Below, piece after piece: positions 38,065 through 55,228 of a stretch of 64,000 nucleotides of DNA (the first letter of the stretch is position 1; the number at the start of each line of letters is the position of its first letter). The DNA lies in NCBI GenBank assembly GCA_963677895.2, contig CAXXGJ010000017.1:143908-207907 (forward strand). Direction: 5' to 3'. The notes beneath the pieces were generated by a model. That model made no database searches. It was not told the origin of the DNA and saw nothing but the letters and a program-made list of their open reading frames with translations. The position numbers were made by a program, and so were the translations under genes. The DNA is from Treponemataceae bacterium (GTDB lineage: Bacteria; Spirochaetota; Spirochaetia; Treponematales; Rectinemataceae).

Positions 38065-38107
38065 GTCATATATACGGGCGGGTACCGGCGCGGCGATTCA
38101 GAAAAGC

Positions 38108-38135: not shown

Positions 38136-38184
38136 CTGCGGAAAGTCGGCCTGAAGACGAGTCTTCAGACACCGATGATCAGGC

Positions 38185-38553
38185 CTATTCGGCCTTCTCG
38201 ACCTTCTTGGAAATGATAAGTTCCTTGACCTTGGATTTCTTGCCGACCTTGGTGCGGATGTAGTAGAGCTTGGCCCTTCTCACCTTGCCGCGGCGGAGCA
38301 CTTCCACGTTTTCGACGCGCGGTGAATTGAGCGGAAAAACTCGCTCCACGCCGACGCCGTAGGAAGTCTTGCGGACCGTGAAGGTTTTGGCGACGCCGCC
38401 GTTCTTGATCGCAATGACGAGGCCTTCGTATGCCTGAACACGCTCTGTCTTGCCTTCCACGATTTTAAAGCTCACGCGAACGGTGTCACCCACGTTGAAC
38501 GCGGGGAGCTCACTCTTGATCTGTTCGGCTTGAATGGACTGTACCAGGTTCAT
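38185..38553 (-). CDS. rplS: 50S ribosomal protein L19
   Basis: [37 protein letters not shown]. Confidence 0.97.
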
Positions 38554-39280: not shown

Positions 39281-39903
39281 TCCAGAAGCCATCCCGCGAG
39301 GAGTTCCATGGATCCGGCTTCGCAGTCCACCTCGCCGATGAACTCGTTCCTGAAGGGAACGAGCACCTGGGAGCCCAGGGCCGGGGGCTTGTCCTCGCCG
39401 GAGGTTATGGCCGAGGAGGCGCCGGAGGCGGGGCCGGAAACGGGGCCGGGGGCGCAGCCGGAGGCGGCTTTTCTAGCGAGCACCTTCACCTCGAGAAGAG
39501 GGTCGGCTCCGCCGTCCAGGACGCCCATGATCTCTCCGACGGCAAGGCCGTCCAGCATAAGCTTCATGCCGATGAGATCGTGGATATACCATTCGTTGCT
39601 TTTAAGAGGACTCACGCGATCTCTGGGAAGGTAGAGCTCCAGGCCGGTCAGGGCGCGCGCTTTCTCGGGCGTATCGTAGCCTTCGAAAACGAAGCTCAAG
39701 CCCCAGTCGCCCGACTCGGCGGATTGGATTTTCATCATTTTCGCCAATTCAGGTTTTTTTTCGGGAGCCGCGAGAATTGTCGTGAGACCTTTAAGATGAC
39801 TATATTCGCCGGAATAGCTGTGCAGCTTCAGGAATCCATTGAGACCCCGCGGGGCCCCAAGCTTGGCGACGGCCAAAAGTTCCTTGTCGGCGACTTTATT
39901 CAT
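39277..39903 (-). CDS. rimM: ribosome maturation factor RimM (with a low-complexity insert)
   Basis: GAPRGLNG.LK, EWYIHDLIG, VLVPF; position in the operon. Confidence 0.93.
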   Translation of the reverse strand: MNKVADKELLAVAKLGAPRGLNGFLKLHSYSGEYSHLKGLTTILAAPEKKPELAKMMKIQSAESGDWGLSFVFEGYDTPEKARALTGLELYLPRDRVSPLKSNEWYIHDLIGMKLMLDGLAVGEIMGVLDGGADPLLEVKVLARKAASGCAPGPVSGPASGASSAITSGEDKPPALGSQVLVPFRNEFIGEVDCEAGSMELLAGWLLE

Positions 39904-39912
39904 GGGAGGCGT

Positions 39913-40146
39913 TCAGTCCAGAATCTCCAGGATCACACGCTTGGACTGTGCTGAAGCGCAGGCTGAGAGGATCGTCCGGATGGCTCTGGCGATCCGGCCG
40001 TTCTTGCCGATCACCTTGCCGATGTCGGCGTCGGCGACCTTGAGTTCAAGAATCGTCGATTTCTCGCCTTCGATAACCTTGATGTCTACGGCATCGGGTT
40101 CGTCGACGAGGGATTTTACAATATATTCTACTAAATCGCGTTCCAC
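39913..40146 (-). CDS. khpA: KH-domain RNA-binding protein
   Basis: LVEYIVKSLVDEP, DIGKVIGKNGRIARAIRT. Confidence 0.93.
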   Translation of the reverse strand: MERDLVEYIVKSLVDEPDAVDIKVIEGEKSTILELKVADADIGKVIGKNGRIARAIRTILSACASAQSKRVILEILD

Positions 40147-40211
40147 TTCGTACTCCTTGGCAAAAAAAAGCGCCGGTCGGCTGTATGGGCCGAAGAATCG
40201 GCCCTCACCGC

Positions 40212-40463
40212 CTATTTGACCTGGATATTTTTCTTGTTGAGCAGGGAGCGAACGGTATCCGAAGGCTGGGCGCCGCGCGCAAGCCAGAATTTCGCCTTTT
40301 CCTCATCTATTCGAATCTGCTTTTCTTCGATTTCGATGGGATGATAGAGGCCGATTTCATCGATGGTTCTGCTGTCGCGGGGCGACCTAGCGTCCATGAT
40401 GACTATTCGATAAAAAGGACGGGCTTTCGCTCCGAATTTCTTGAGCCTTATCTTAACGCTCAC
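40212..40463 (-). CDS. rpsP: 30S ribosomal protein S16
   Basis: [36 protein letters not shown] start after GGAGG. Confidence 0.97.
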
Positions 40464-40553
40464 GGATTCCTCCTGAACTTTATGGAAAATTGGACCCTGC
40501 TTGAGACACACGTACCCCCGGCTCAGGATCCGAATCGGGGATTAGCGCTCTGA

Positions 40554-40865: not shown

Positions 40866-40985
40866 TATTTTTTCGCTCTGGGCTATGGTGACAGTCCCTA
40901 TCATTTTGTGATATTATCATACTGGTTGTTGGACACAGTAGGAATTCCGGAACTTATCGTTGTGCAGACAGACTACAGGAGTAAT

Positions 40986-41678
40986 ATGGAACTTGAAAAG
41001 AGTGTCGATTTCGACTTTTTCATCAGATTTGCGGAAGGATTGCAGAAGTTCCTCGGCGACAAGTGCGAGATCGTCATCCATGATTTTCGAAAAGGTTTCG
41101 AGCACACCATAGTGCACATCATCAATGGGCAGCTGAGCGGACGCGATGTGGGCGGCCCTCCCCGCGGAGGCATGATCTCCAATTCCGGGAAGGACATAGA
41201 ACCTTTCAAGGAGAGCAGGATCTACTTCTACAATGGCACCAACGAGACGAAGGGGCAGATATTCAAATCCTGCACCACCCTCATATGCGACGAGAACAGG
41301 AAGATCATCGGGTCGGTCTGCCTCAATCTCGAAATGTCCGATTTCATACTCGCGCAGAACGCGTTGCAGAATTTCGTCCGCTACAACAATCCAGACATCT
41401 CCACGCTCAAGGAGGAAGATGTGGCCTTCGAGAATGTGGATGATGTTATGCGCTATTATATGGAACAGTGCGAACAGGTCGTTGGCAAGCCAATGTCGCT
41501 GATGAGCAAAAAAGAGAAGATAAAGGCGCTGGAGTATCTCGACAGCAAAGGTGTTTTTAAAATCACGAAAGCCAGCGTGCTTCTATGTCAAGCCTTCCAT
41601 GTTTCGAAATTCACGCTCTACAGCTACCTGGAAGAGGCGAAGGGACTTCGGGAGCCAGCTGATTTGGAAAACTTGTAA
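40986..41678 (+). CDS. YheO/DauR-like PAS plus HTH transcriptional regulator
   Basis: CEIVIHDF...TIVHIING.LSGR.VG.P, KS.T, IG..CLN, KIKALEYLDSKGVF.I...VSKFTLYSYL. Confidence 0.9.
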   Translation: MELEKSVDFDFFIRFAEGLQKFLGDKCEIVIHDFRKGFEHTIVHIINGQLSGRDVGGPPRGGMISNSGKDIEPFKESRIYFYNGTNETKGQIFKSCTTLICDENRKIIGSVCLNLEMSDFILAQNALQNFVRYNNPDISTLKEEDVAFENVDDVMRYYMEQCEQVVGKPMSLMSKKEKIKALEYLDSKGVFKITKASVLLCQAFHVSKFTLYSYLEEAKGLREPADLENL

Positions 41679-41696
41679 GGTTAAGTACCAGCGCAT

Positions 41697-41732
41697 AACG
41701 GGTTCTGACAAACGTCAGAACCCGTTTTTTTT
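41697..41732 (+). terminator. intrinsic terminator
   Basis: AACGGGTTCTGAC-aaac-GTCAGAACCCG-T8. Confidence 0.85.
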
Positions 41733-41809
41733 GCCGTTATCCATTTCGGACATGATTGGAGGTATAGGTGAAATGTGGAAGTTTTTACGCAAATATTTTA
41801 AAAAAAGCA

Positions 41810-41838
41810 TTGCCAGATTTAAAGAGTGCATCTATACT
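41810..41838 (+). promoter_or_regulatory. sigma70 promoter of the catabolic operon (TTGCCA-17-TATACT)
   Basis: Near-consensus hexamers, AT-rich upstream region. Confidence 0.7.
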
Positions 41839-42035
41839 CTCAATATAACATACAGTTAGTATGACTAAATTACTGAATGTATGAAGTAGAAGGAAAATCC
41901 AATGCCCATAAAGAGCGCGTCGGCATAAACCGTGTCGCACCCGCTCCGGGAGGGCGCGACAAAAAGGAAAAGGGGGCAACTGTGGGTGACACAGCGAGCG
42001 CGATACAAAAAAAAGAATCGGGGTGTGGCACAACC

Positions 42036-43157
42036 GTGAAAATCGAACGAGTCGAATATATACCGGTGCGGATCGCGAAACGCGGCGCCAAAAACGGACT
42101 CGGTTGGAAAACGGCGCTGGGCAACAATCCCTACGGCGATGCCGTCATCGTCATTCTTCACGTCGAAGGCGGCAACTTCGGCCTGGGAGAAGTGTCGTCC
42201 ATCTGGGACGGCGGCGCCGGCAACCTCGTGGCGGGATTCGGGGAAAGAATAGCCGATTCCATAATCGGGTTGGATGTCTTTTCGGTCTCCGAGGCGATCG
42301 CCCGGATGGACAAGGCGATGGCCTGGAGCAAAAACGCCCTCTGCCTGAAGGCCGGCATCGAGATGGCGATGTATGACCTGATCGGCAAGCTCAAGGAGAT
42401 GCCGGTGTATCAACTGCTCGGCGGTAAGCGCCGGGAGCGCATCCCCCTTTCCCATTCGGTCTCGATGGGCACAGTCGATGAACAAGTCGCCCAAGTGACC
42501 GAGCATGTAGCCTGCGGTTTCAGGACGGTGAAAGTGAAGGTCGGCATCGATTTTGAGCGCGACCTGGCGGCCGTGCGCGCCATACGCGAGCACTTTGGTC
42601 CTGAACTTGGTATCCGCGTGGACGCGAACATGGGATGGCGCGATCAAAAAATGCTCCTCAATGTCGCCTATCAGCTTTCAGCGCTGGGGGTGCTCTCGAT
42701 AGAGCAGCCCTTCGCGCCCCACGAGCTTGAGAAACTCGCTTTCATACGCAGGCACAGCCCGATTCCCATCATGCTCGACGAGAGCGTCTGGGATCCCGTG
42801 GATGCCTTGAAAGCGATCGAAGCCGGCGCGGGGGATATCTTCAACGTTTATGTCAGCGAGTCCGGCGGGCTCAATAAGTCGATGCAGATAGCGAATCTCT
42901 GCGAGACGGCGGGAGTGGGCTTCTGCATCGGCAGCATGCCGGAATTCGGCATCGGGACCGCTGCGGAGCTTCACTTGGGCATCGCCGCGCCGCGCATCGA
43001 TCATCCCAGCGACGTGATCGGCAATCTTTATTTCGTTGACGATGTCATAGCAGAAGTTTTGCCGGTAAACGAAGGCTTCGCCTATGCCGTCGAAGGCCCC
43101 GGCCTCGGGGTCAGCCTCGATTGGGACAAGGTGGAGAAATACCGCACCGACAAATAG
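42036..43157 (+). CDS. enolase superfamily protein, muconate lactonising enzyme (MLE)-like subgroup
   Basis: GLGE, AGIEMAMYDLIGK..PVYQLLGG, KVKVG, DAN, EQP, DES, GPGLG; start may be the upstream GTG at 41982. Confidence 0.9.
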   Translation: MKIERVEYIPVRIAKRGAKNGLGWKTALGNNPYGDAVIVILHVEGGNFGLGEVSSIWDGGAGNLVAGFGERIADSIIGLDVFSVSEAIARMDKAMAWSKNALCLKAGIEMAMYDLIGKLKEMPVYQLLGGKRRERIPLSHSVSMGTVDEQVAQVTEHVACGFRTVKVKVGIDFERDLAAVRAIREHFGPELGIRVDANMGWRDQKMLLNVAYQLSALGVLSIEQPFAPHELEKLAFIRRHSPIPIMLDESVWDPVDALKAIEAGAGDIFNVYVSESGGLNKSMQIANLCETAGVGFCIGSMPEFGIGTAAELHLGIAAPRIDHPSDVIGNLYFVDDVIAEVLPVNEGFAYAVEGPGLGVSLDWDKVEKYRTDK

Positions 43158-43209
43158 AGAGTGGCCGGTGAGGCACCCTTAGGGCAGCCAAAGAGGAAAG
43201 AAAATCTAT

Positions 43210-43710
43210 ATGGACATCTATGAAAGGCTTGTGCAACTTTTGGTCGAATTGCCGCCGCACACATCTCCGAACGGAAGCTACACGCTGATGGCGGAGTTCG
43301 GCGGGCATTACTTGTATACCTCCGGAACCGGCTGCGCCTCGGGTGGAAAACCCCTCGTCGTGGGCAGGTTGGGAGAAGAAGTCTCGATCGCGGACGGGCA
43401 GCGCGCGGCGCGTCAGTGCGTGCTGAATGTACTCTCCAACGCGAACGCCTACCTTGGGGACCTGAATCGCATACGTCGTGTGGTGAAAACCACGGTCTTC
43501 ATCGCCTGCGGGGAAGCCTTTGGTGACCAGAGCGTCGTGGCCGAGGGCGCTTCCGAACTTCTCTGCGCGCTGTTCGGCGCGGAGGGACGGGGAGTGCGCA
43601 GCGCCATCGGCGTGAGCTCTCTTCCAAAAAGCCAGGCGGTGGAGATCGAGATGATTTTCGAGTTGAAGGAAATTGGAAAGGAGCGACCGGATGATGATCC
43701 ACTGGAATGA
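43210..43710 (+). CDS. RidA/YjgF family (Rid) protein
   Basis: LYTSG, GRLG.EVS..DG..AAR, GASELL..LFG.EG..RSAIGV.SLP...VEIE; conserved Arg present. Confidence 0.9.
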   Translation: MDIYERLVQLLVELPPHTSPNGSYTLMAEFGGHYLYTSGTGCASGGKPLVVGRLGEEVSIADGQRAARQCVLNVLSNANAYLGDLNRIRRVVKTTVFIACGEAFGDQSVVAEGASELLCALFGAEGRGVRSAIGVSSLPKSQAVEIEMIFELKEIGKERPDDDPLE

Positions 43711-44452
43711 GTTGAGCAAGGATCAATTCGAGCGGTACCGCGATACGGCGACCGTCGCCATCAACTTCGCCTCCACCGAACAGCACTCGAGGCACCTCCC
43801 GGTGGGCACCGACGCTATCCTCGGCAAGGCGGTGCTGGAAGAGGCGGCCCGGCTGGCCACTTCCCCCATGCTCATCCTGTCGCAGGCCTGTTACGGCTAT
43901 TCTCCCCACCACCGTTTCGCGCCGGGTTATGTCACCATCTCGCAGAACACACTGATCTCCTACGCACGGGACATATGCAAAAGCGTCTACGAGAATGGTT
44001 TCAAAAGAATGTTCCTGGTCAACTCCCACGGCGGCAACCAGGTCTATCTCTCCGCCGTCATCAACGAGATCGGCGAGGAATATGGCGAGAAGTTTTCCCT
44101 CATGGAATTGCGGTACTGGGATGTCGCGGGCCCTCGCATCATGGAGATACGCGATTCGGCGTTGGGTGGCATGGGGCACGCCTGCGAATTCGAAACCTCG
44201 ATGATGATGCATCTGCGGCCAGACCTGGTGCAGGCGGATAAAATCGCCGAATGCCCTCCAGTGCCAGGGGACCCATGGTTCCAGATGGATCTGCTGGGGT
44301 TCAAGAAATACCTCAAGTTCTCCAATTTCAATACCTACAACCCCGACGGCCACGTCGGACAGCCGCATCTGGCGACCGCCGAAAAAGGCAGACTGTTCTT
44401 CGAGGCGGTCACCGAGGAACTGGCGAAATTCTTTGACTATTTCCATGTCTGA
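43691..44452 (+). CDS. creatininase family amidohydrolase
   Basis: STEQHSRHLPVGTD, GYSPHH, NSHGGN, HACEFETS, ATAEKG. Confidence 0.92.
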   Translation: MMIHWNELSKDQFERYRDTATVAINFASTEQHSRHLPVGTDAILGKAVLEEAARLATSPMLILSQACYGYSPHHRFAPGYVTISQNTLISYARDICKSVYENGFKRMFLVNSHGGNQVYLSAVINEIGEEYGEKFSLMELRYWDVAGPRIMEIRDSALGGMGHACEFETSMMMHLRPDLVQADKIAECPPVPGDPWFQMDLLGFKKYLKFSNFNTYNPDGHVGQPHLATAEKGRLFFEAVTEELAKFFDYFHV

Positions 44453-44491
44453 AAAACGATGACGAGGCGCTGAATTCGAAGGAGTGTTTGA

Positions 44492-44683
44492 ATGCCTAAA
44501 TACAAGATCGAAATAAATAGGGCATGGTGCAAAGCCTGCGGGATCTGTATCGATTTTTGCCCCAAGAAAGTCCTGGGCCCCGATGAGAACGGCAAGGCTT
44601 CGGTGGTGAGTCCGGACGATTGCACGGGCTGCTCCATGTGTGAGCGCCGCTGTCCCGATTACGCAATCAAAGTGGAAGGATGA
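44492..44683 (+). CDS. 2[4Fe-4S] ferredoxin, OFOR delta subunit
   Basis: CKACGICIDFCP and CTGCSMCERRCPD. Confidence 0.93.
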   Translation: MPKYKIEINRAWCKACGICIDFCPKKVLGPDENGKASVVSPDDCTGCSMCERRCPDYAIKVEG

Positions 44684-44687
44684 GAAG

Positions 44688-45830
44688 ATGGCAGAACAGC
44701 AAGTAAAGCTTTTACAGGGGAACGAAGCCTGCGCGATGGCGGCGCTCGACGCCGGGGTCAGGTTTTTCGCCGGATACCCCATCACTCCCGCGACGGAAAT
44801 CGCCGAGATTCTCGCGAAGGAATTGCCTAAGCTGGGCGGCATTTTCATACAGATGGAAGACGAAATCGCCAGCATGGGGGCCATCATCGGCGCCTCCATC
44901 GGCGGTATGAAAAGCCTCACCGCGACGAGCGGCCCCGGTTTCACGCTGATGCAGGAGAATTTAGGATACGCGGCGATGGTGCAGGTGCCCTGCGTCATCG
45001 TGGACGTCCAGCGCGGAGGGCCCAGCACGGGAATGCCCACGCTTCCATCCCAAATGGATGTGATGCAGGCCCGCTGGGGAACGCATGGCGATCACCCGAT
45101 CGTCGTCCTCTGCCCGTCGACTGTGTACGAGTACTACATCCTGACGATCAAGGCCATCAACTTTTCCGAAATGCTGAGAACGCCGGTCATCCTTCTGGCC
45201 GACGCGATCGTGGGACATCTACGCGAGAAGGTGATTATCCCCGATAGTTCCCAAATCGAACTGGTCGAACGGAAGCGAGCCGCCCTGCCGGCAAAGGACT
45301 TCCTGCCCTTCAAGCCGGATGATGACGATGTGCCGCCCTTCATGCCCTACGGTATCGGTTACCGGTATCACATGACCAGCAACAACTACGATGAGGGCGG
45401 ATACCCCGCCACCAACGATTCACAGGTAGCGGTCAAACTGCTCACACGTCTGCATCGCAAAGTCGAGAAGCGTCGCGGCGAAATAATCATGACGGAAGAA
45501 ATCATGATGGACGACGCCGAAATCGCGCTGTTCGCCTATGGATGCACGGCCCGCTCGGCGCACAGCGCGGTCGAGACGGCGCGCCAGCAGGGCATAAAGC
45601 TGGGCCTGATAAAGGCGCTCACGCTCTGGCCCTTCCCGCGGGAAGTAGTGGAAAAATACGGGGACAAAGTAAAAGCGATCATCGTCGCCGAAATGAACAT
45701 GGGGCAGCTCGTCGGCGAAGTAGAGCGCGCGCTGAAAGACAAAAAGGCGGCCGTGCGCCAGGTGAACAGGTTTGACGGGAAAATGATAACGCCCGACCAG
45801 ATTCTCGATGCCGTAAAAGAGGTGAGGTAA
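44688..45830 (+). CDS. 2-oxoacid:ferredoxin oxidoreductase alpha subunit (Kor-like)
   Basis: GNEA, GYPITP, QMEDE, TATSGPG, QRGGPSTG.PT, EMN.GQ. Confidence 0.93.
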   Translation: MAEQQVKLLQGNEACAMAALDAGVRFFAGYPITPATEIAEILAKELPKLGGIFIQMEDEIASMGAIIGASIGGMKSLTATSGPGFTLMQENLGYAAMVQVPCVIVDVQRGGPSTGMPTLPSQMDVMQARWGTHGDHPIVVLCPSTVYEYYILTIKAINFSEMLRTPVILLADAIVGHLREKVIIPDSSQIELVERKRAALPAKDFLPFKPDDDDVPPFMPYGIGYRYHMTSNNYDEGGYPATNDSQVAVKLLTRLHRKVEKRRGEIIMTEEIMMDDAEIALFAYGCTARSAHSAVETARQQGIKLGLIKALTLWPFPREVVEKYGDKVKAIIVAEMNMGQLVGEVERALKDKKAAVRQVNRFDGKMITPDQILDAVKEVR

Positions 45831-46649
45831 ATGTCAGCACATGTTCAGGACTATCTGAGAACGAACAAGATGCCTCATATCTGGTGCCCCGGATGCGGCA
45901 CCGGCATCGTGCTCGGGGCGGTGGTGAGGGCTATCGCCACCATGGGATACAAGCGCGACGAGGTCATGGTCATCACCGGGATCGGATGCTCGGCGAGGAC
46001 GAACGCCATCATCGATTTCAATACCTTCCAGACAACCCACGGAAGGGCTCTCAGCTTCGCCACCGGATTCAAGCTCGCCAGGCCCGAGATGAAGGTAATC
46101 GTGATAACCGGCGATGGCGACGGCGCCGGAATAGGGGGAAATCACCTGATCCAGACCTGCCGCCGGAATATCGACATCACGACGATACTGATCAACAACA
46201 GCATCTACGGCATGACAGGCGGCCAGTATTCCCCGCTGACCCCGATGGGAAAATACGCCACGACGTCGCCCTACGGAATGATGGAGCAATCTTTCGATGT
46301 CTGCAAGCTCGCCGAAGGCGCCGGGGCGAGCTATGTGGCCAGGAGCACCGCGTACCACGTGACGCTGCTGGAGCAGCTCATCACTAAGGCGATGGCGCAC
46401 GAAGGTTTTTCCTTTGTGGAAGCCGTGTCCCAGTGCCCGATCGGCTTCGGGCGCCGCAACAAGATGAAAACGCCCACCGCGATGCTCGAGTGGCAGCGCG
46501 ACAATGCCGTGAACGTAAAGGCGGCCGCGGCCATGAGCCCCGAAGCGCTGGAGGGCAAATTTACGATAGGCGAGTTCGTGAACAAAAACGTTCCCGAATT
46601 GGTGAAGGCATACGCGGAGCTGAACAAAAACTGCGGCGCGAGAGGATAG
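45831..46649 (+). CDS. 2-oxoacid:ferredoxin oxidoreductase beta subunit
   Basis: WCPGCG, GIGC, THGR, GDGD...NN.IYGMTGGQ.SP (TPP binding). Confidence 0.93.
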   Translation: MSAHVQDYLRTNKMPHIWCPGCGTGIVLGAVVRAIATMGYKRDEVMVITGIGCSARTNAIIDFNTFQTTHGRALSFATGFKLARPEMKVIVITGDGDGAGIGGNHLIQTCRRNIDITTILINNSIYGMTGGQYSPLTPMGKYATTSPYGMMEQSFDVCKLAEGAGASYVARSTAYHVTLLEQLITKAMAHEGFSFVEAVSQCPIGFGRRNKMKTPTAMLEWQRDNAVNVKAAAAMSPEALEGKFTIGEFVNKNVPELVKAYAELNKNCGARG

Positions 46650-46653
46650 GGCG

Positions 46654-47190
46654 ATGGAACGAAAAGAAATAGTCATAAGCGGCTCGGGCGGACAGGGCGT
46701 CGTTCTGGGCGGTATTATCCTGGCCGAAGCCGCCGCGATCTACGACGACCTCAATGCCACGCATAATCAATCGTATGGGCCGGAGGCGAGAGGCGGAGCC
46801 AGCAAGTCGGAAGTGATTATCAGCGAAGGCGCGATTCATTTCCCCGAAATCGAAAACCCGGACATCCTCGTGGCGCTGACCCAGGAAGCGATCAGGAAGT
46901 ATGGGAATACCATAAAATCACAGGGAATACTCATCGTGGATTCCAAGGTCAAGGTCGATGAAGATCTCAAAAGAAAGGCGAAAACCTTCAGCCTCCCGAT
47001 AGTGGAAACGGCGATCAGCAAAGTCGGCAACGAGGTGACCGTCAATATGGTGACGTTGGGCGCTCTCGTCGCCATCACCAAGATCGTAAGCAGGGAATCC
47101 ATCGAGAAGGCGGTGCTCAATCGAATTCCAAAAGGGACGGAAAACCTGAACAGGAAAGCGTTGGCGGAAGGTTTCGCGCTGGCGGAATAA
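46654..47190 (+). CDS. 2-oxoacid:ferredoxin oxidoreductase gamma subunit
   Basis: GSGGQG, QSYGPEARGGAS.SEV, NMV.LG. Confidence 0.93.
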   Translation: MERKEIVISGSGGQGVVLGGIILAEAAAIYDDLNATHNQSYGPEARGGASKSEVIISEGAIHFPEIENPDILVALTQEAIRKYGNTIKSQGILIVDSKVKVDEDLKRKAKTFSLPIVETAISKVGNEVTVNMVTLGALVAITKIVSRESIEKAVLNRIPKGTENLNRKALAEGFALAE

Positions 47191-47230
47191 GCCAGGAAAA
47201 TTTGCGCTGGTGAGCAAAGGGAGAATGGTC

Positions 47231-48667
47231 ATGGCAGTCAAAACAAAGGCCGAGTATATCGAGTCGTTGAGAAAACTGAAGCCGACGGTTTATATGTTCG
47301 GCGAGAAGGTCGAGAATTTTGTGGACAATCCCAGGATCAGGGCGGGGATCGAGGCGACGGGGGAAACCTATGCGGTCGCCGAGAGCCCTGAACATCGCGG
47401 TTCGATGATAACGAAGAGTCCCCTGATCGGGGAGGACATCAACCGCTTCACTCTGCCTCCCGGATCGCGGGAAGACTTGGTGGCGAGAGTGAAAAACAAC
47501 CGGATGCTCGGCGGCAGGGTCGGGACCTGCTTCCAGCGCTGCACGGGCCTGGACTGCATCAGCGCCCTCTCCATCGTCACCTACAACATCGACCAAAAGT
47601 ATAAAACTCAGTATAACGCCAGGTTTCTGGAGTTCCTGAAATATGTCCAGAAGAACGATCTCACCTGCAACGCCGGCGTGACCGACGTAAAAGGCGATCG
47701 TTCCCTAGGGCCTTTCGAGCAGGCGGATAAGGACCAGTATTTGCGCGTGGTCGAAGAAAAGGAGGACGGCATCGTCGTGCGCGGTGCCAAGGCGCATCAG
47801 ACCGGCTCCCTCTCTTCGCATGAGATCATCGTGCTGCCGACGCGCGCGATGAAAAAAGAAGACAAGGACTACGCCATCGCTTTCGCGCTTCCCGTGGATA
47901 CACCCGGAATCATCCACGTCGTCGGAAGGTCCACCCTCGATATGCGCGAGCTTCAGGGCTGCGACCGGGGGAATACGAAATACTCCAAATATTGCCCCAC
48001 GGTGATTTTCAATGATGTGTTCGTCCCCTGGAGCCGGGTGTTCATGTACGGCGAGACGGAGTTCGCCGGAGAGCTGGTGATGCGCTTCTCATCATTCCAC
48101 AGGCAGAGCCATGGCGGCTGCAAGGCGGGGAAGATCGACTGCATGATCGGCGCCGCCATGAACATGATGGAATACAACGGCACGCAGAAAGTGAGCCACC
48201 TCCGCGAGAAAATCATCGACATGATACACAGGGCGGAAACCCTGTACGGGTGCAGCATCGCCGCCTCCTATGAGGGGGATCAACAAGATTCCGGCACGTA
48301 TTTCATAGATCCCGTCCTCGCGAACGCCTCCAAGCTGCACGAGGGTAAGGAAATGGCCGAAGTCGGAAGGCTCCTCATCGATATCGCCGGCGGCTTCGCC
48401 TGCGACTTGCCTTCCGACAAGGACTTCGAAAATCCCGAGATCGGCCCGCTGCTGAAGAAGTACATGAAGGGCTCCGAGAGCGCTTCGGTCGAAGATCGCA
48501 TCAAGATGCTGCGATTGGTCGAAAAGCTGACTTTGGAGAGCGCCGACACCGTGTCGGATATACATGGCGGAGGTTCGCCGGAAGCGCACAGGATAACGAT
48601 AATGCGCGAGTCCGATGTGGAAGGCAAGAAAAAGCTGAGCAAAAGGCTCGCCGGGATAGAGAGTTAA
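47231..48667 (+). CDS. 4-hydroxybutyryl-CoA dehydratase (AbfD) family protein, active-site variant
   Basis: YIESLRKL, CFQRC, TD.KGDR, GAKAHQTG, HRQSHGGCK, DIAGG, HGGGSP. Confidence 0.88.
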   Translation: MAVKTKAEYIESLRKLKPTVYMFGEKVENFVDNPRIRAGIEATGETYAVAESPEHRGSMITKSPLIGEDINRFTLPPGSREDLVARVKNNRMLGGRVGTCFQRCTGLDCISALSIVTYNIDQKYKTQYNARFLEFLKYVQKNDLTCNAGVTDVKGDRSLGPFEQADKDQYLRVVEEKEDGIVVRGAKAHQTGSLSSHEIIVLPTRAMKKEDKDYAIAFALPVDTPGIIHVVGRSTLDMRELQGCDRGNTKYSKYCPTVIFNDVFVPWSRVFMYGETEFAGELVMRFSSFHRQSHGGCKAGKIDCMIGAAMNMMEYNGTQKVSHLREKIIDMIHRAETLYGCSIAASYEGDQQDSGTYFIDPVLANASKLHEGKEMAEVGRLLIDIAGGFACDLPSDKDFENPEIGPLLKKYMKGSESASVEDRIKMLRLVEKLTLESADTVSDIHGGGSPEAHRITIMRESDVEGKKKLSKRLAGIES

Positions 48668-48695
48668 GTGGTTAAAGAAACGAGGAGCTAAAGTC

Positions 48696-49877
48696 ATGAG
48701 GAATGTAGTCATTGTCAGCGCGGTGAGGACGGCGGGCGGGAGTTTTGGCGGCGCCTTCAAAAATCTCACGGCGGTGGATCTCGGGGCCGCTGTGGTCGGG
48801 GAGTCGGTGCGCAGGGCAGGAATCGCTCCGGAGGATGTGGGCCAGGTCATATTCGGCAATGGCTGGCAGGCGGGCGTCGGGCCAAATCCGGCCAGGCTGT
48901 GTACGGTGAAGGGAGGGCTCCCCGTCAGTTGTCCCGCTTTTACGGTGAACCTGCGCTGCGCCTCAAGCCTGCGAGCGATCGAATTGGGAGCGCTGAGCAT
49001 CGCCGGCGGCGAGGAAGATATAGTCCTGGCTGGCGGCACCGAGTCATCCACACAGGTGCCCTTCATCATGCCCACGCTCCGCTGGGGACAGCGCATGGGG
49101 GACGGCAAGGCCTGCGATGTGCTGCATAAGGATGGATTCATGTGCCAGCTGGCGGGGATGATGATGGGCAACACCGCCGAACTTCTCGTCGACAAGTACG
49201 CCATCTCCCGCCAGGAACAGGATGAGTTTTCCCTGGAAAGCCACCTGAAGGCGTTGAAAGCCATGGAGGGAGGCTTCTTTGACGAAGAAGTGCTGCCGAT
49301 GACGATCCAGGAAAAGAAAGCCGTCACCGTGGTGAAGAGCGAAGAAATTCCCCGCAACGACATATCCCTCGAAAAGCTTGGAAAGCTGCCGCCCGTATTC
49401 CTCGAAAACGGAACGGTGACGGCGGGGAACAGCTGCGCTCTGTGCGACGCTGCGTCGGCGGTGCTGCTGATGTCGGAAGAGAAGGCCCGGGAAATGGGCC
49501 TCAAGCCGATGGCGGTCATACGTTCATATTCCTATGTGGCCCTCGACCCGAAATCCATGGGCTTGGGACCGGCCCTGGCCATACCGAAGGCGCTGAAGAA
49601 GGCGGGGCTCGCGTTGCGCGATATCGACCTGATCGAGTTGAACGAAGCTTTCGCGGCGCAGGTCATCGCCTGCGACCGGGAGCTGAAGCTGGACAGGAGC
49701 AAGCTCAACGTGAACGGCGGCGCCATCGGGCTCGGGCATCCCGTGGGCGCCACCGGAGCCAAAATCCTGACGACCCTTCTCTATGCTCTGAAAAACAGGG
49801 ACAAGAAATTGGGCATGGTCAGCCTTTGCATCGGCGGCGGACAGGGCGTGGCCCTGATCGTCGAACGACTGAATTGA
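48696..49877 (+). CDS. acetyl-CoA C-acyltransferase (thiolase)
   Basis: NLRCAS, NEAFA, GHPVGATG, SLCIGGG all intact. Confidence 0.95.
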   Translation: MRNVVIVSAVRTAGGSFGGAFKNLTAVDLGAAVVGESVRRAGIAPEDVGQVIFGNGWQAGVGPNPARLCTVKGGLPVSCPAFTVNLRCASSLRAIELGALSIAGGEEDIVLAGGTESSTQVPFIMPTLRWGQRMGDGKACDVLHKDGFMCQLAGMMMGNTAELLVDKYAISRQEQDEFSLESHLKALKAMEGGFFDEEVLPMTIQEKKAVTVVKSEEIPRNDISLEKLGKLPPVFLENGTVTAGNSCALCDAASAVLLMSEEKAREMGLKPMAVIRSYSYVALDPKSMGLGPALAIPKALKKAGLALRDIDLIELNEAFAAQVIACDRELKLDRSKLNVNGGAIGLGHPVGATGAKILTTLLYALKNRDKKLGMVSLCIGGGQGVALIVERLN

Positions 49878-49897
49878 TGGGACGCGAGGTGAATACA

Positions 49898-50782
49898 ATG
49901 CAAACGATCTTTATTATCGGGGCCGGAACGATGGGACGGGGCATAGCCCAGGTCGCCGCCCAGGCGGAGAACGATGTCTATCTTTCCGATATGAGCCTGG
50001 ATCTCGTAAAAAAGAATCTTGAAATTGTCGCGGCCGGCCTGGACAAGCAAATTGAAAAAGGAAAGATGACCAAGGATGAAGCCGAAGGAATCATGGGGCG
50101 GATCCATATGGTCGAAAACCTGAACAAGGTCGAAAATGCCGATTTCGTCATCGAGGCCGTCCTGGAAGATGTCGCTTTGAAGCAAAGCATTTTCAAGGAA
50201 CTGGACGAAAAGACAAAACCGGATGCCATCCTGACCACGAACACGACATCCTGCTCCATCACGCAGATCGCCTCGGCGACAAAAACCCCCGAGCGGGTCG
50301 TCGGCATGCACTTTTTCAACCCGCCGGCGATCATGAAACTCGTCGAAATCATGCCGGGCATGCTCACTTCGAAAAGCACTTTAGAGCGGACGAAAGAACT
50401 CGCGCTGAGCCTGAACAAAGATCCCGTAGTCACCAAGACCGAGGGGCCGGCGGGCGTCACGAGCCGAATATTGTCCGGCATGCTCAACGAGGCGGTGTGG
50501 GTATTGCAGGAAGGCATCGCTTCCGTCGATGAGATCGACAAGGCGATGGTCCTGGGCTGCAACCATAAAATAGGGCCGTTCGCCCTGATCGATCTCATCG
50601 GTGTGGATATCCATCTCGCGAAGACGCAGATGCTTTACAAGAAAACCGGCGACGCGCGGTACAGGCCCTGCTATCTTCTGGAACAGATGGTGACGGCCGG
50701 CCTCCTCGGGAAGAAGACCGGGGTGGGATTTTACGACTATTCCACGGATCCGGTTGAGCCGTCGGCGTTTTTCAAACGATGA
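49898..50782 (+). CDS. 3-hydroxybutyryl/3-hydroxyacyl-CoA dehydrogenase
   Basis: GAGTMG.GIA, IEAV.E, GMHFFNP..MKLVE, LGKKTG.GFY. Confidence 0.93.
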   Translation: MQTIFIIGAGTMGRGIAQVAAQAENDVYLSDMSLDLVKKNLEIVAAGLDKQIEKGKMTKDEAEGIMGRIHMVENLNKVENADFVIEAVLEDVALKQSIFKELDEKTKPDAILTTNTTSCSITQIASATKTPERVVGMHFFNPPAIMKLVEIMPGMLTSKSTLERTKELALSLNKDPVVTKTEGPAGVTSRILSGMLNEAVWVLQEGIASVDEIDKAMVLGCNHKIGPFALIDLIGVDIHLAKTQMLYKKTGDARYRPCYLLEQMVTAGLLGKKTGVGFYDYSTDPVEPSAFFKR

Positions 50783-50815
50783 ACGGGAAATCCACTATGA
50801 AGGCAGGCCGCAGAG

Positions 50816-51592
50816 ATGGGTAACTATTTTTCCTATGAAAAAGCGGAGGGCGTCGGCCGTTTGATCATCGACAATCCACCGATGAATGCCCTATGCGACG
50901 ACATGGTGGAGGAACTGGATAAGATTCTCGCGACCCTTGAGCGCGATGGTGAGCTGAAGGCGCTCGTCATCACCGGCGCCTGCGGGAAGGCCTTTATGGC
51001 TGGCGCCGATATACGCGAGTTGAGCGAAAGGGATTTTATCCAGGGCCGCGCGCAAACCCAGCGCCGCCAGGCGGTCTACAACCGGATCGCCGATTTCCGC
51101 GCGCCCACGATAGCGGCGGTAAATGGCTATGCCCTGGGCGCCGGGCTGGAACTCGCCCTGTCATGCAGCATCCGGGTCGCCTCGGAAAACGCCAAGTTCG
51201 GCGCCCCGGAAATCAATCTTGGGATAATCCCCGGCGATGGGGCGACGCAGCGTCTTCCCAGGATCATCGGATTGGGAAGAGCCATGCACATGATTCTTAC
51301 ATCGGAGATGATCACGGCCGATGAAGCCCTGCGGTATGGCCTTGTCACAAAGCTCTTCCCTCAGGACGAACTCGCGGAAGGCGCAAACGCGATGGCGCGG
51401 AAGCTCGCGAAAAAGGCTCCATTGGCGTTGATGTATGCCAAGGAAGCCGTGAATCGATCCTTCGATACCGCCCTGTCGGTCGGCTTGACCATGGAGTCCT
51501 ATCTGCACGCGCTGGCCTGCGCGAGCGAGGACAAGGAAGAAGGCGTAAAGGCCTTTCTCGAAAAGCGGGAACCCGCGTTCAAGGGGAAATGA
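50816..51592 (+). CDS. enoyl-CoA hydratase (crotonase family)
   Basis: [38 protein letters not shown]; both catalytic Glu present. Confidence 0.93.
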
Positions 51593-51623
51593 ATCCTGCG
51601 GTGGCGACAGAAGTGGAGGGATC

Positions 51624-52916
51624 ATGTTCGAATGGAAAGGTGAGACCCAGGCTGAGCTGCCCAGGATTTGCGCCGTGAAGCAGCGGTCTGATATCTCCGG
51701 CATCGATGTCCGGGAAGGTATCCGCGCCGAACTGACGAAGCCGGAAATCAAGAAGCTGTTAGTTCCGAGGCTGAGGGCGGCGGTCGCCGTCGGAAGCCGC
51801 GGCATAGGCGAAATCGACATCATCGTACGAACCATCGTCGACGAGCTCAAGAAAAGCGGTCTGGCCGTTTTTATCGTCCCGTCGATGGGGAGCCATGGCG
51901 GCGCCACGGCCGAGGGGCAAATCGAATACTTGGCTGGCTATGGAATAACCGAGGAAACGATGGGTGTTCCAATCCGATCTTCGATGGAGATTGTCGAACT
52001 TGGGGACGTGGAGCCGGGGGTCAATGTCTGCTTCGACAGAATCGCTTATGAAGAAGCCGATTTGATAATTCCCGTCAATCGCGTCAAATGCCACACCGGT
52101 TTCAAGGGGCCGGTCGAGAGCGGCCTCTACAAAATGCTGGTGATAGGCATGGGCAACCATATCGGCGCCTCGCGCATCCATGCCTTGGGATTCCCCCGCT
52201 TCAGGGAATTGATTCCCAAGACCGGAGAGTTCATTCTCGGCAAGGTTCCCGCCGTCAAGTTCGGCATCGCGATTGTCGAGAATGCCAAGGATCTTCCATC
52301 CATCATCGAAGCTGTTCCCGCGAAGGAATTTAAGACGCGAGAGCCGGAACTTCTGAAATTGTCGCGACTACTGATGCCTCGATTGAATTTTTCCAACATC
52401 GACCTATTGGTCATCGGCGAATTGGGCAAGAATATCTCGGGAGCGGGGCTCGACCCCAACGTGACCGGACGTTTCTGGATGTCTCACATGGAAGATGGCC
52501 CCCTGATCTGTAACAGGATCGTCCTCCTCGATCTGACTCCGGAATCCCACGGGAACGCCATGGGGGTGGGCATGGCGGACGCGATAAGCAGAAAGCTATT
52601 GGATAAAATCGATTTCAACGCGACCTACACGAACGCGATAACCGCGGGAAGAATCGAGAAAGCCCGTGTTCCCATGGTCATGAAGAACGACAGGGATACG
52701 ATCAAGATCGCGCTCCAGGCCATCGGATTGGCTCCCCGGCAAAAGCCGCGGGTTGTAATCATCAAAAACACCTTGGAGCTGGAGCAAATTTATGTTTCTG
52801 AAGAGTTGATGGAGGATGTTAAGACTAATCCCAACCTGGTGATATTAGGTGATCCTCGCGAAATGCAGTTTGATGAAGGTGGAAACCTTGTTCTGGAATT
52901 CGAACCATTACCCTAG
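51624..52916 (+). CDS. LarA/DUF2088-like (lactate racemase N-terminal domain) protein
   Basis: AVGSRGI, PSMGSHGGATAEGQ, NRVKCHTGF, ESGLYKM..IGMG, GKNISGAG.D.N, SHGNA.G.G.AD. Confidence 0.7.
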   Translation: MFEWKGETQAELPRICAVKQRSDISGIDVREGIRAELTKPEIKKLLVPRLRAAVAVGSRGIGEIDIIVRTIVDELKKSGLAVFIVPSMGSHGGATAEGQIEYLAGYGITEETMGVPIRSSMEIVELGDVEPGVNVCFDRIAYEEADLIIPVNRVKCHTGFKGPVESGLYKMLVIGMGNHIGASRIHALGFPRFRELIPKTGEFILGKVPAVKFGIAIVENAKDLPSIIEAVPAKEFKTREPELLKLSRLLMPRLNFSNIDLLVIGELGKNISGAGLDPNVTGRFWMSHMEDGPLICNRIVLLDLTPESHGNAMGVGMADAISRKLLDKIDFNATYTNAITAGRIEKARVPMVMKNDRDTIKIALQAIGLAPRQKPRVVIIKNTLELEQIYVSEELMEDVKTNPNLVILGDPREMQFDEGGNLVLEFEPLP

Positions 52917-52946
52917 AGCATTAAGCGTTAAGGCTCAGCATTAATT

Positions 52947-53002
52947 TTTCAAGGAGGTTTTGAAATGAATAAGCAACTGTTTCAAGGAGGTTCTGAAATG
53001 AA
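52947..53002 (+). repeat. 23-bp direct repeat duplicating the RBS and start codon
   Basis: TTTCAAGGAGGTTTTGAAATGAA (52947-52969) and TTTCAAGGAGGTTCTGAAATGAA (52980-53002), period 33 bp. Confidence 0.9.
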
Positions 53003-54410
53003 AGAGCAAGTGGGTAAAGAGAAAAAGAAAAAAAAGCTGGAGTTGCCCGATACACTGATCATCCTGCTTGGTATGATTTTAGTAGCGACTGTCTGCACTT
53101 TTATTATTCCTGCCGGCGAATATAAACGTGTCCTGAACCAAGCAACCAATCGCCAGGTGGCCGATCCGGCATCTTTCCATTACGTGGCGCAGAAACCTGT
53201 TGGCATAATGGAAATGTTTTTTTCCATCCCCCAAGGTCTGATTGAAAGCGCCAATATCGTATTCTTGACCCTGATCTGCGGCGCGGTTTTCCATTTAGTC
53301 ACCTTTACGGGCGCTCTCGATGCCGGGCTTAACAACGCTATTAAAAAGCTTTCCGGTGGAAAAAAGTACGCACTTGTATTCGGACTCTTTTTCATATCGT
53401 TTCTTCTTGGCCTTAGGGGAAGCGCCGAAACGCTGCTCCCCTTTGTGCCTCTCGCTGTGGCGGCCAGTATCGCGATGGGGTTTGACTCGATTACCGGTAC
53501 CGCTCTAGTCCTCCTCGGCGGCGTTGCCGGTACTTCAACTACGTTCATGGACACTTCGTTAGTTATCGCGCAGGGTATTTCCGAGCTGCCGGTTTATTCC
53601 GGAGCCGGCTTCAGGCTTGCCTGTTCTGGTGTCACCTTCATTATCGCTTTGCTTTTCATCCTCCGCTATTGCAGAAAGCTTGATAAAGATCCTGCAAAAA
53701 GCAGCATGTATGAATCTGACAGAACCCTTGATATAAAAATAGATATCAAAGTTCAGGATTTTACTGCCCGGCGCAAGGCTGTCCTTGCCACATTTGTCCT
53801 CGGCATCGCTATACTGATGGTCTGTATCGCGGTTTTCGCGTTCAGTTCCATCCAGGTAACCGCTTTGTACTTTATGCTCGCCGTGGCCATCGGTATCGCC
53901 GGCGGATACACTCCGAATTTGTTCGCTAAAGAATTTGTCAACGGCTGTAAGTCAATGATGTATGGCGCGCTTATCATCGGATTCGCGAGGCCGATCACCA
54001 CTGTCATGACAAAAGGTTTAATCCTTGATACAATCACCCATGCGGCTTCCGGATTATTGAGTTTCCTGCCCGCTTCCGTCTGCGCATTCGGTATGTTTAT
54101 TGTTCAAGGCTTTTTAAGCATTGTGGTTCCTTCAGGTTCCGGTCAGGTTGCCGTCACGATGCCGATTATGGCTCCGCTTGCCGATTTTATCGGTGTAACA
54201 AGGCAGACTGCCATTGTTGCGTATTCCCTCAGCGACTCCTTTATCAACCTGCTTACGCCGACATCCGGTTATTTTATGGCCGCGATCGGAATCAGCCAGA
54301 TTCCATGGACCAAATGGGTCAAATGGTATATACCGCTATTGATTGCCTTCGTTGTCGAAGCATTCTGCATACTAAGCATCGCAACTATAATTCACTTGGG
54401 GCCGTTCTGA
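52998..54410 (+). CDS. YfcC/DcuC-like (basic amino acid antiporter family) transporter
   Basis: TFIIPAGEY.R, AQGISELP.YSG..FR, ILDTI, PSGSGQ..TMPIMAPLAD..GV.RQ, PTSG; alternative in-frame start at 52965. Confidence 0.88.
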   Translation: MKEQVGKEKKKKKLELPDTLIILLGMILVATVCTFIIPAGEYKRVLNQATNRQVADPASFHYVAQKPVGIMEMFFSIPQGLIESANIVFLTLICGAVFHLVTFTGALDAGLNNAIKKLSGGKKYALVFGLFFISFLLGLRGSAETLLPFVPLAVAASIAMGFDSITGTALVLLGGVAGTSTTFMDTSLVIAQGISELPVYSGAGFRLACSGVTFIIALLFILRYCRKLDKDPAKSSMYESDRTLDIKIDIKVQDFTARRKAVLATFVLGIAILMVCIAVFAFSSIQVTALYFMLAVAIGIAGGYTPNLFAKEFVNGCKSMMYGALIIGFARPITTVMTKGLILDTITHAASGLLSFLPASVCAFGMFIVQGFLSIVVPSGSGQVAVTMPIMAPLADFIGVTRQTAIVAYSLSDSFINLLTPTSGYFMAAIGISQIPWTKWVKWYIPLLIAFVVEAFCILSIATIIHLGPF

Positions 54411-54432
54411 TAGTTTCATACCATATTAAAAA

Positions 54433-54460
54433 ATCTCCGCTGCAAAAATGCAGCGGAGAT
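54433..54460. terminator. stem-loop at the end of the catabolic operon
   Basis: ATCTCCGCTGCA-aaaa-TGCAGCGGAGAT; the A-tract is on the left side. Confidence 0.65.
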
Positions 54461-54470
54461 GCTCAACAGC

Positions 54471-54515
54471 ATTCCCGCTTCTGCTGTAAACACGACAGGG
54501 GCGGGTGACGCATTA
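54471..54515 (+). pseudogene. relic of a PfkB-family kinase signature
   Basis: Translates IPASAVNTTGAGDAL, resembling DTTGAGDAF; no surrounding ORF. Confidence 0.5.
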
Positions 54516-54699
54516 GAAAGGTAACTTTCTTCTCATTCCAGAAGGACAAACTCAGGCAAAGCCATTCTAGTGATATGTCAAAAAAAAATCACATGATATA
54601 AGAATAAAGTTTTGCTATACTCATAACATAGGAAAAAAGTAAAATCGAATATCACTGAGGATGAAATTACGCTCATGGAAAAATCCTGACATTAGGATC

Positions 54700-54975
54700 A
54701 GTCCAATACAAATACGCAGCCAGGCTTCCAATGAAACAACCAAACTCTGATGAAAAAAAACGAATTGAGCAGAATCGTTTGCAATGAAAAGCCAGAGTCA
54801 GGGACTCATTGGAGTAAGCGGGAGCTTGGCAAAGGACTTGGTGTTGGGCATTCATCAGTATATAAGATTCTCCACGATCGTGGACTAAGGCCCCATTTGG
54901 TTAAGCAGTTTCAAGTCAGCAAGATCCGGATTTTAAAAAGAAGCATGAAGACGTCGTTGGCCTCTGTCTCGACAA
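54700..54975 (+). mobile_element. degenerate IS630-family transposase fragment
   Basis: KPESGTHWSKRELGKGLGVGHSSVYKILHDRGLRPHLVKQFQVS, then after a frameshift DPDFKKKHEDVVGLCLD; AT-rich; DDE domain missing. Confidence 0.8.
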
Positions 54976-55228
54976 TACCATTGTTCAGATTCCACCCCTA
55001 CTTTTCATCAAAATTCGATCATCTTATAACTTTTGAAAGAGCCTCTAATAACTTACATCAAGCCGACTCCAAGCCATAATCGACAATACAAAATCGGATT
55101 TCCCCAAAAATCTGTTGTGCATCTCGTTCGTCGCTGGCAAAGTGGCAGAAATGGTAGTACATTATCTTCGCTCTCCTAGCTTGATGCAGTTATTGAGTTT
55201 TATCCTCTTGCCATATAGTATCTTTCGA

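Follow-up and report, generated by a model that had tools for sequence, protein, structure and literature searches.

A fused operon with a variant 4-hydroxybutyryl-CoA dehydratase in a Rectinemataceae spirochaete, and its candidate role in the breakdown of a glutarate-type acid

The hydroxyglutarate pathway of Acidaminococcus fermentans (GctAB, HgdCAB, GcdA) runs through glutaconyl-CoA (PMC3035267, partial text). 4-Hydroxybutyryl-CoA dehydratase (AbfD), a different enzyme, whose name serves as a marker for 4-aminobutyrate/succinate fermentation and for carbon fixation, has four residues important for its activity, T190, E257, Y296 and E455 (bioRxiv 10.1101/2020.02.05.935528, partial text). Here, we analyse a stretch of 64,000 nucleotides from a Treponemataceae bacterium (contig CAXXGJ010000017.1, positions 143,908 to 207,907; hereafter the window), of which the closest named relative is a Rectinemataceae spirochaete (DNA identity of 88-95% over the main blocks). 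Between positions 40986 and 54410, it carries an operon in which a variant of AbfD (AbfD*) is associated with a 2-oxoacid:ferredoxin oxidoreductase (OFOR), with the thiolase, dehydrogenase and hydratase of a lower pathway, and with an upstream module made of an enolase of the muconate lactonizing enzyme (MLE) subgroup, a Rid protein and a creatininase-family hydrolase. The operon is real, its pathway is undescribed within the literature searched, and its substrate may well be an acid of the glutarate type, not of the butyrate type that was first put forward. Its genes are the following.

40986 to 41678, + strand: YheO/DauR-type regulator (PAS_6 and HTH_22, Pfam), adjoining the enolase module in spirochaetes and Bacillota at 33-98% identity
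42036 to 43157, + strand: MLE-subgroup enolase, Tyr-at-beta6 subfamily (MR_MLE_N/C); alternative start at 41982
43210 to 43710, + strand: Rid protein, Rid1-3 type, Arg retained (Pfam and alignment)
43691 to 44452, + strand: creatininase-family hydrolase (PF02633), below all three equivalog cut-offs
44492 to 44683, 44688 to 45830, 45831 to 46649 and 46654 to 47190, + strand: OFOR delta, alpha, beta and gamma subunits, 2-oxoglutarate-oxidoreductase-like
47225 to 48667, + strand: AbfD* (HpaB_N/HpaB; Pfam and alignment to 1U8V)
48696 to 49877, + strand: thiolase, thl (profile match; sole tblastn match in the host genome, G000)
49898 to 50782, + strand: 3-hydroxyacyl-CoA dehydrogenase, hbd (3HCDH), below the PRK05808 cut-off
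50816 to 51592, + strand: enoyl-CoA hydratase, crt (ECH), below the PRK05809 cut-off; sole tblastn match in G000
51624 to 52916, + strand: LarA group 22 protein (NF052515, 491.8 bits for a cut-off of 400)
52965 to 54410, + strand: YfcC/DcuC-family transporter (PRK11588, 249.4 for a cut-off of 500, an assignment at the family level only)

Searches with Pfam and NCBIfam profiles recovered 14/14 genes, so that the content, order and common orientation given in a preliminary description of this DNA stand, as does its remark that neither a CoA ligase nor a CoA transferase is found among the open reading frames (ORFs) of the operon. The intergenic gaps from the enolase gene to larA range from -20 to 52 nt, with 81 nt ahead of yfcC; the creatininase gene and the OFOR delta gene are 39 nt apart, and no strong terminator lies inside the operon. 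A literature search by title and abstract opening, with most subscription papers and bioRxiv supplements (and thus possible alignments of 4-hydroxybutyryl-CoA dehydratases) outside its coverage, returned nothing on the AbfD* clade or on the pathway, and terms for the 5-CoA ester discussed below or for 5-hydroxy-2-oxoadipate are absent from the matches listed. The impression that the gene combination matches no described pathway is thus borne out.

AbfD* had been taken for an ordinary AbfD, which its residues contradict. It is a full-length homologue of the enzymes of C. aminobutyricum (1U8V, its best PDB match, 464 bits) and N. maritimus (6VJR, 440 bits), is about 50% identical to canonical AbfD-type loci, and has crotonase, Hbd and thiolase genes downstream as they do. 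The [4Fe-4S] ligands C99, C103, H292 and C299 of 1U8V are kept as C102, C106, H292 and C299, and are invariant in 14/14 aligned sequences; Arg90 and Thr190 are kept as R93 and T193. On the contrary, 3/4 catalytic residues are replaced (E257 by C257, Y296 by H296 and E455 by S444), the threonine alone being retained. By these residues and its phylogeny, AbfD* is non-canonical and defines a widespread clade, present in hundreds of genomes of anaerobes (354 stretches match patterns derived from it). From the best 80 of 233 and the best 80 of 354 matches, a sampling biased to close relatives, we collected 97 loci having an HRQSH motif and more than 60% identity; 93/97 are full length, and the motifs YSKYxPT and ESADxxSDxHGGGS occur in 92/97 and 91/97. 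A FastTree phylogeny built from 95 variant and 14 canonical sequences recovers the variants as one monophyletic group (branch 0.40, support 0.81), which carries C or A, H and S in place of E257, Y296 and E455; within it, the copy of the window nests with the Bacillota copies L092-L095 (support 0.99). An AlphaFold model of AbfD* (mean pLDDT of 54) was not used.

The neighbours of AbfD* also differ from those of AbfD, since the partner is an OFOR or a SucCD-like ligase, not a 4-hydroxybutyrate CoA-transferase. Within 2.5 kb of the gene, the 97 loci carry an OFOR (32), the ligase (38), both (0) or neither (19), and 8 have a short flank. This makes it plausible that, as first suggested, the acyl-CoA comes from the OFOR, yet the alternation is largely one evolutionary switch on the tree. 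The 32 OFOR loci include D-2-hydroxyacid dehydrogenase (17), LarA22 (11), OYE-type reductase (10) and Ldh_2 (8) genes, and an LhgO/GlpO-like gene lies near AbfD* in 17/97 loci. The SucC-like protein differs from the canonical succinyl-CoA synthetase in the region of the succinate loop, which has a role in that enzyme. In Syntrophorhabdus/Desulfobacterales-type genomes, the SucCD-like ligase forms a subfamily of its own, whose genes are divergent from a GntR-abfD* unit (L132:8421-9569, L112:7051-7923 and 36 similar loci). Syntrophus members of the clade are annotated as 4-hydroxybutyryl-CoA dehydratase in databases, a name that is probably wrong for this clade. SYN_02445 of S. aciditrophicus, a possible member of the clade, reportedly lacks key AbfD residues (Kim et al. 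2015).

The OFOR points to a dicarboxylic substrate. It shares a four-subunit layout with its best PDB matches, the 2-oxoglutarate:ferredoxin oxidoreductases 8YS5 and 6N2N, and R56 of its beta subunit aligns with R63 of 6N2N; Arg is also present in 8YS5, and the broad-specificity enzyme 5B46 has Lys. In the enzyme of M. marinus, Arg63 reportedly binds the carboxylate at the distal end of the substrate (Chen et al. 2019). The alpha subunit scores above the PRK08659 cut-off, while the OorA and OorB equivalog cut-offs are missed (390.9 vs 579 and 310.9 vs 364). Next to methylmalonyl-CoA genes, the host possesses a second OFOR of the same type, which is 51-58% identical and also has the Arg, and as this copy looks like the housekeeping one, that of the operon need not serve 2-oxoglutarate.

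For the upstream module, the earlier suggestion of an elimination followed by Rid hydrolysis is plausible. The enolase keeps K166/K168, D196, E223, D248 and an acidic residue at beta8, and thus shares the KxK motif, the three metal ligands and the beta8 acid with dipeptide epimerase 3JVA, muconate cycloisomerase 3CT2, N-succinylamino acid racemase 2P88 and cis-3-hydroxy-L-proline dehydratase, but is distant from them and below every equivalog cut-off. Dipeptide epimerases and N-acylamino acid racemases have two catalytic Lys; here, the beta6 one is replaced by Y272, as in 21/25 of the best enolase representatives, which makes a two-base racemisation unlikely. Some o-succinylbenzoate synthases likewise have Tyr where the beta6 Lys would stand. 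An ESM Atlas search with the enolase gave generic MR/MLE clusters only. The Rid protein has an Arg aligned with those of 3D01 and PA0814, the residue that marks imine-hydrolysing Rid proteins (RidA, Rid1-3) (PMC4433059, partial text). The creatininase-family protein belongs to PF02633 and remains below the TIGR04448 cut-off (109.3 vs 235). In the locus L209, a second cassette (L209:8994-14261; abgT, AstE/AspA deacylase, threonine-synthase-like pyridoxal-phosphate (PLP) enzyme, creatininase, Rid) lies directly 3' of the enolase cassette. Tyr272, the Arg-bearing Rid and this PLP-lyase/deacylase cassette suggest only the general logic of an elimination and then an imine hydrolysis.

The operon is, judging from gene order and sequence identity, a fusion of two modules, each with its nearest relatives in Bacillota. 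The closest downstream module, in the Peptococcaceae locus L093 (OFOR alpha/beta 84-85%, AbfD* 84%, Thl 80%, Hbd 78%, Crt 71% identity), is placed behind sugar-acid-type genes, without enolase, Rid or creatininase. The front end of L092/L093 consists of TRAP transporter, LarA, UxaA/GarD-like, 2-hydroxyacid dehydrogenase and IlvD-like genes, with two LarA homologues. Other front ends are seen on the OFOR-AbfD* module in L094 and L096-L099: GntP-GlcD/F-cupin, and TRAP-OYE-cupin with a 290-aa protein without Pfam match. Beyond spirochaetes, the enolase clade (54-77% identity) was found only in Bacillota-named records and unnamed metagenome contigs; these loci carry abgT, usually amidohydrolases, rid and creatininase, and in three lineages an orthologous OFOR (71-78% identity among them), none being seen at the enolase loci of L209 or on the G003 contigs. 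GltS, formiminotransferase and arginase-family genes are further neighbours.

The Bacillota clusters usually also carry a close GctB homologue (353 bits to 1POI). In G080 and G082, the cluster gctAB is additional to a canonical gct-gcd-hgd operon, and in G002 the enolase cluster is continued by hgdAB, gcdA (896 bits to 1PIX) and gcdB. Among the genomes tested, 5/5 Bacillota vs 0/4 AbfD*-bearing spirochaetes gave matches to GctB and the HgdAB family; the HgdAB-family search of five deltaproteobacterial genomes was uninformative, as the family includes benzoyl-CoA reductases. The two modules do occur together outside the host: enolase-clade and AbfD*-level matches are combined in 4/69 genomes of the family including the host (three in the host genus, one in another), weaker matches in G033 and G058 being left out of this count.

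In relatives (L081, L206, G055, G064), the order is yheO-abgT-enolase-amidohydrolase-amidohydrolase-M42-rid-creatininase-OFOR-abfD*-thl, and it continues with hbd-crt-larA22 wherever their DNA extends far enough. Compared with this long form, the window has lost four genes, i.e., abgT, both amidohydrolase genes and the M42 peptidase gene, which blastn did not find elsewhere in G000. Two traces remain.

41968 to 42028 (61 nt), + strand: 5' remnant of abgT, in frame with the enolase gene, 87% identical to L081 8346-8406
43197 to 43202, no strand: approximate joint left by the loss of a 2.8-kb block (two amidohydrolase_2 genes and the M42 peptidase gene), from comparison with L081

On L081, the joints correspond to 8400->9996 for abgT and 11121->13957 for the 2.8-kb block. 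When four sequencing runs were compared with L081, both joints were found within contigs of the runs X1 and X3 (depth about 10 and 21), which may be the source samples of the window; in these runs, the deleted parts are also covered, at lower depth than the short-form joints, and X10 has the long form only. Short- and long-form strains thus apparently coexist in the X1 and X3 samples, with the short form at the higher contig depth (L081:6900-16600). The separate metagenome contig L205 (93.3% identity over 7.7 kb) has the same junctions as the window, and we rejected an assembly artefact on these two grounds. A decaying operon was also rejected: the ratios of nonsynonymous to synonymous substitution rates (dN/dS) between the window and L205 are 0.07 for the enolase, 0.20 for Rid, 0.17 for the creatininase and 0.03-0.11 for OFOR and AbfD*, values resembling those of full-form pairs, as rough NG86 estimates in which similar dS among all strains suggests recombination. 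From the shared junctions and the apparent purifying selection on the remaining genes, the short form is judged stable and the lost genes accessory. By sorting core enzymes (enolase, Rid, creatininase) from accessory ones, this natural deletion variant simplifies a reconstitution of the upstream pathway. In L081, the first amidohydrolase (L081:11173-12000) lacks the HxH metal motif present in the second and is possibly a non-catalytic partner subunit.

The transporter gene of the window has another origin. It belongs to a 2.2-kb segment (52923-55163) inserted by comparison with G055, in which dus comes next to larA, is also missing 3' of larA in L001 and G064, and has a GC content at third codon positions of 0.55 vs 0.64-0.79 for the other operon genes; on these comparisons, yfcC is a strain-specific insertion. 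A YfcC homologue search gave generic matches. Gene order in relatives designates AbgT as the ancestral transporter of the module. As three relatives lack yfcC, this gene is a poor guide to the substrate, and the argument for basic amino acids once drawn from it falls. After yfcC, and within the same insertion, a short helix-turn-helix (HTH) ORF (54750-55079; weak Pfam HTH matches) looks by eye like a remnant of an IS630-type transposase.

Three lines lead us to a C5 dicarboxylic acyl-CoA: the OFOR Arg, the linkage to GctAB/HgdAB/GcdAB in Bacillota and the 2-hydroxyacid-type neighbours of AbfD*. 2-Hydroxyglutaryl-5-CoA fits all three, because it would be the OFOR product of 5-hydroxy-2-oxoadipate, the product of a succinate-type ligase acting on 2-hydroxyglutarate, and a carboxylated 4-hydroxybutyryl-CoA. 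Klees and Buckel (1991) reportedly described this ester as an 'erroneous product' of Gct. We thus propose, tentatively and with somewhat less than even confidence, a fused catabolic operon for a nitrogen-containing C6 dicarboxylic acid, degraded via 2-hydroxyglutaryl-5-CoA or its 4-amino analogue to glutaconyl-CoA and then acetyl-CoA. In the ancestral form, AbgT would import a conjugated (acylated or peptide-linked) compound, from which the amidohydrolases and M42 would free the core; the short operon would act on the free compound. The enolase would catalyse a beta-elimination with one base, or open a ring; the creatininase-family enzyme would open an amide or lactam; and hydrolysis of the enamine/imine by Rid would leave a 2-oxo-dicarboxylate, of which 5-hydroxy-2-oxoadipate (or its 5-amino analogue) is the simplest candidate. 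The OFOR would then produce 2-hydroxyglutaryl-5-CoA, i.e., 4-hydroxybutyryl-CoA with an extra C4 carboxylate (or gamma-glutamyl-CoA), from which AbfD* would remove the C4 group by AbfD-type radical chemistry, giving glutaconyl-CoA; the substrate carboxylate may stand in for the lost Glu455. The loss of CO2 would take place on AbfD* or, once Crt and Hbd have acted, from 3-oxoglutaryl-CoA, and thiolase would yield two acetyl-CoA. Compared with the A. fermentans pathway, with which glutaconyl-CoA is shared and to whose genes the Bacillota upstream modules are linked, the thioester would be on C5 instead of C1, and the genome of the window gives no match for GctB, HgdAB or GcdA.

For AbfD* itself, a possible but rather doubtful extension is that of a new radical hydratase/dehydratase that needs no ATP-driven activator to interconvert glutaconyl-CoA and 2-hydroxyglutaryl-5-CoA, and which would complete an undescribed amino-dicarboxylate fermentation here and run in reverse in Syntrophus, Syntrophorhabdus and Desulfobacterales. 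If true, their AbfD*, with the SucCD-like ligase and an LhgO-like dehydrogenase, would provide a missing route from glutaconyl-CoA to 2-oxoglutarate and glutamate. The logic of its neighbours yields a short list of candidate AbfD* substrates.

Several observations weigh against the dicarboxylate pathway. GcdA was not found in the four spirochaetes nor in two Peptococcaceae genomes, the six that are closest by their downstream module (it is present in 4/5 deltaproteobacterial AbfD* genomes), and the only carboxyltransferase of the host is MmdA-like; CO2 loss must therefore come from AbfD* or 3-oxoglutaryl-CoA. D445, beside S444, could replace Glu455 and keep an ordinary AbfD activity. The AbfD* kin are not independent, as 37/38 SucCD loci form one subclade (support 0.94) and few lineages with incomplete genomes are represented, and AbfD-family genes exist elsewhere in 2/5 Bacillota genomes, with much lower scores. 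At the R63 site, most OFORs that adjoin AbfD* in deltaproteobacteria carry Trp in place of Arg (24/35 motif matches). The window OFOR (alpha/beta 81-87% identical to the Peptococcaceae and G064 copies) is not the orthologue of that of the Bacillota enolase clusters (42-47%), and the two modules may therefore lack a shared intermediate. LarC was not found in 4/4 spirochaetes (genomes 92-97% complete; found in 2/2 Peptococcaceae), LarE has no match over the cut-off in G000 (92.8% complete), and LarA22 may therefore lack its cofactor. Finally, we know of no natural compound giving 5-hydroxy-2-oxoadipate through the enolase, creatininase and Rid.

The chemistry first proposed survives best among the alternatives, although we consider it unlikely. 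A 5-substituted (5-hydroxy, 5-amino or 5-guanidino) 2-oxopentanoate would give a 4-substituted butyryl-CoA, from which AbfD* would eliminate water, ammonia or guanidine to form crotonyl-CoA for the usual action of Crt, Hbd and Thl. No decarboxylase is needed, consistent with the GcdA result; Thl-Hbd-Crt lie directly 3' of AbfD*, whose altered active-site residues could suit an amine leaving group; and cis-3-hydroxy-L-proline dehydratase (NF043002) is among the top NCBIfam matches of the enolase, if far below its cut-off (136.4 vs 500). This scheme leaves unexplained GctAB/HgdAB/GcdAB beside the upstream module, the SucCD-like ligase and the 2-hydroxyacid enzymes, and conflicts with the OFOR Arg and the strain-specific nature of yfcC. 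The Arg of 2-oxoglutarate-type enzymes and the apparent passing of the Bacillota product to a glutaconate CoA-transferase point to a dicarboxylate. The first interpretation thus stands in its gene co-occurrence, OFOR origin of the acyl-CoA and elimination/Rid logic, and gives way in the identity of AbfD, the transporter argument and the carbon skeleton.

Quite improbable in our opinion is a route in which the OFOR converts 2-oxoadipate to glutaryl-CoA and AbfD* acts as a (decarboxylating) glutaryl-CoA dehydrogenase feeding Crt/Hbd/Thl, the Bacillota passing the CoA on via GctAB. Glutarate is a Gct substrate, this lower pathway is a textbook one that dispenses with GcdA, and the OYE-type reductase near 10/32 OFOR loci could reduce 2-oxohexenedioate. 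AbfD moreover shares features with acyl-CoA dehydrogenases (bioRxiv 2020.02.05.935528, partial text). However, the operon encodes no electron transfer flavoprotein or other acceptor, the Fe-S ligands of AbfD* are all retained, and hgdAB in the G002 cluster points to hydroxyglutarate.

We give the same low credence to a co-transcribed mosaic without one shared intermediate, in which the upstream module would free, e.g., 2-oxoglutarate from a glutamate derivative to supply general metabolism, and OFOR-AbfD* would handle another acid. The modules are far more often apart (enolase, Rid and creatininase stand beside AbfD* in 1/97 loci), and the non-orthologous OFORs and the GltS, formiminotransferase and arginase-family neighbours in Bacillota agree with such a view. 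Against it, the fusion is kept in two genera, with the 39-nt gap and without a strong internal terminator in the window; dN/dS remains at 0.03-0.20 in the short form; and in most Bacillota loci whose flank is long enough, the upstream module is accompanied by an OFOR, a place taken here by the AbfD* module. Very unlikely is a sugar-acid logic (2-keto-3-deoxypentonate to 3,4-dihydroxybutyryl-CoA, converted by AbfD* to acetoacetyl-CoA), which agrees with the UxaA- and IlvD-like dehydratases and two LarA homologues of L092/L093 and with the sugar-acid-like contexts of LarA group 22 (PMC7583248, partial text), but leaves Rid, creatininase, AbgT, Hbd/Crt and GctAB unexplained. Returning to the dicarboxylate pathway, the same L092/L093 front-end genes could serve to make 5-hydroxy-2-oxoadipate from a hexarate. 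Among the other readings weighed (sulfonate, itaconyl-CoA, malyl-CoA, modified-histidine, capreomycidine and S-succinylcysteine), none accounts jointly for Thl/Hbd/Crt and GctAB.

LarA group 22 is listed as 'Unknown function', with short-chain dehydrogenase/reductase (45%), IlvD (30%) and TRAP (30%) contexts (PMC7583248, supplement, in part). By its gene inventory, group 22 may not rely on LarBCE in the host. Two further group 22 paralogues (37-40%) are present in G000 at C4:21214-22482 and C2:289524-290846, each near an enolase-family gene and transporters.

The control region contains four candidate elements.

40888 to 40917, + strand: sigma-70-like promoter candidate for yheO (10/12 match with extended -10 TG; a consensus match only)
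41697 to 41726, + strand: intrinsic terminator candidate 3' of yheO (13-bp stem and T-run)
41810 to 41838, + strand: operon promoter candidate, TTGCCA-17-TATACT (10/12 match)
41847 to 41863, + strand: candidate operator, inverted repeat CATAC-N5-GTATG near +1 (alignment of eight upstream regions)

Because of the terminator-like stem and T-run, yheO is probably a unit separate from the operon. The region has no excess of promoter-like sites (15 vs 10.3 +/- 4.1 expected); a -35/-10-like pair is seen by eye at the aligned place in 7/8 upstream regions, i.e., the promoter position is conserved in relatives. The repeat is identical in the window, L205, L081 and L194, similar in L196, L082 and L169, and weak in L209; the promoter position and the repeat are thus retained among the spirochaetes, with a looser match in two Bacillota. 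This conservation makes the repeat a candidate operator, to which YheO might bind. In L081, an ABC transporter block lies 5' of yheO, a place where the window has none. The window also carries, by eye, two ordinary sets of genes: an RpiR-like regulator with a MurQ-like etherase (35014-36916) and an rpsP-KH-rimM-trmD-rplS cluster (37696-40511).

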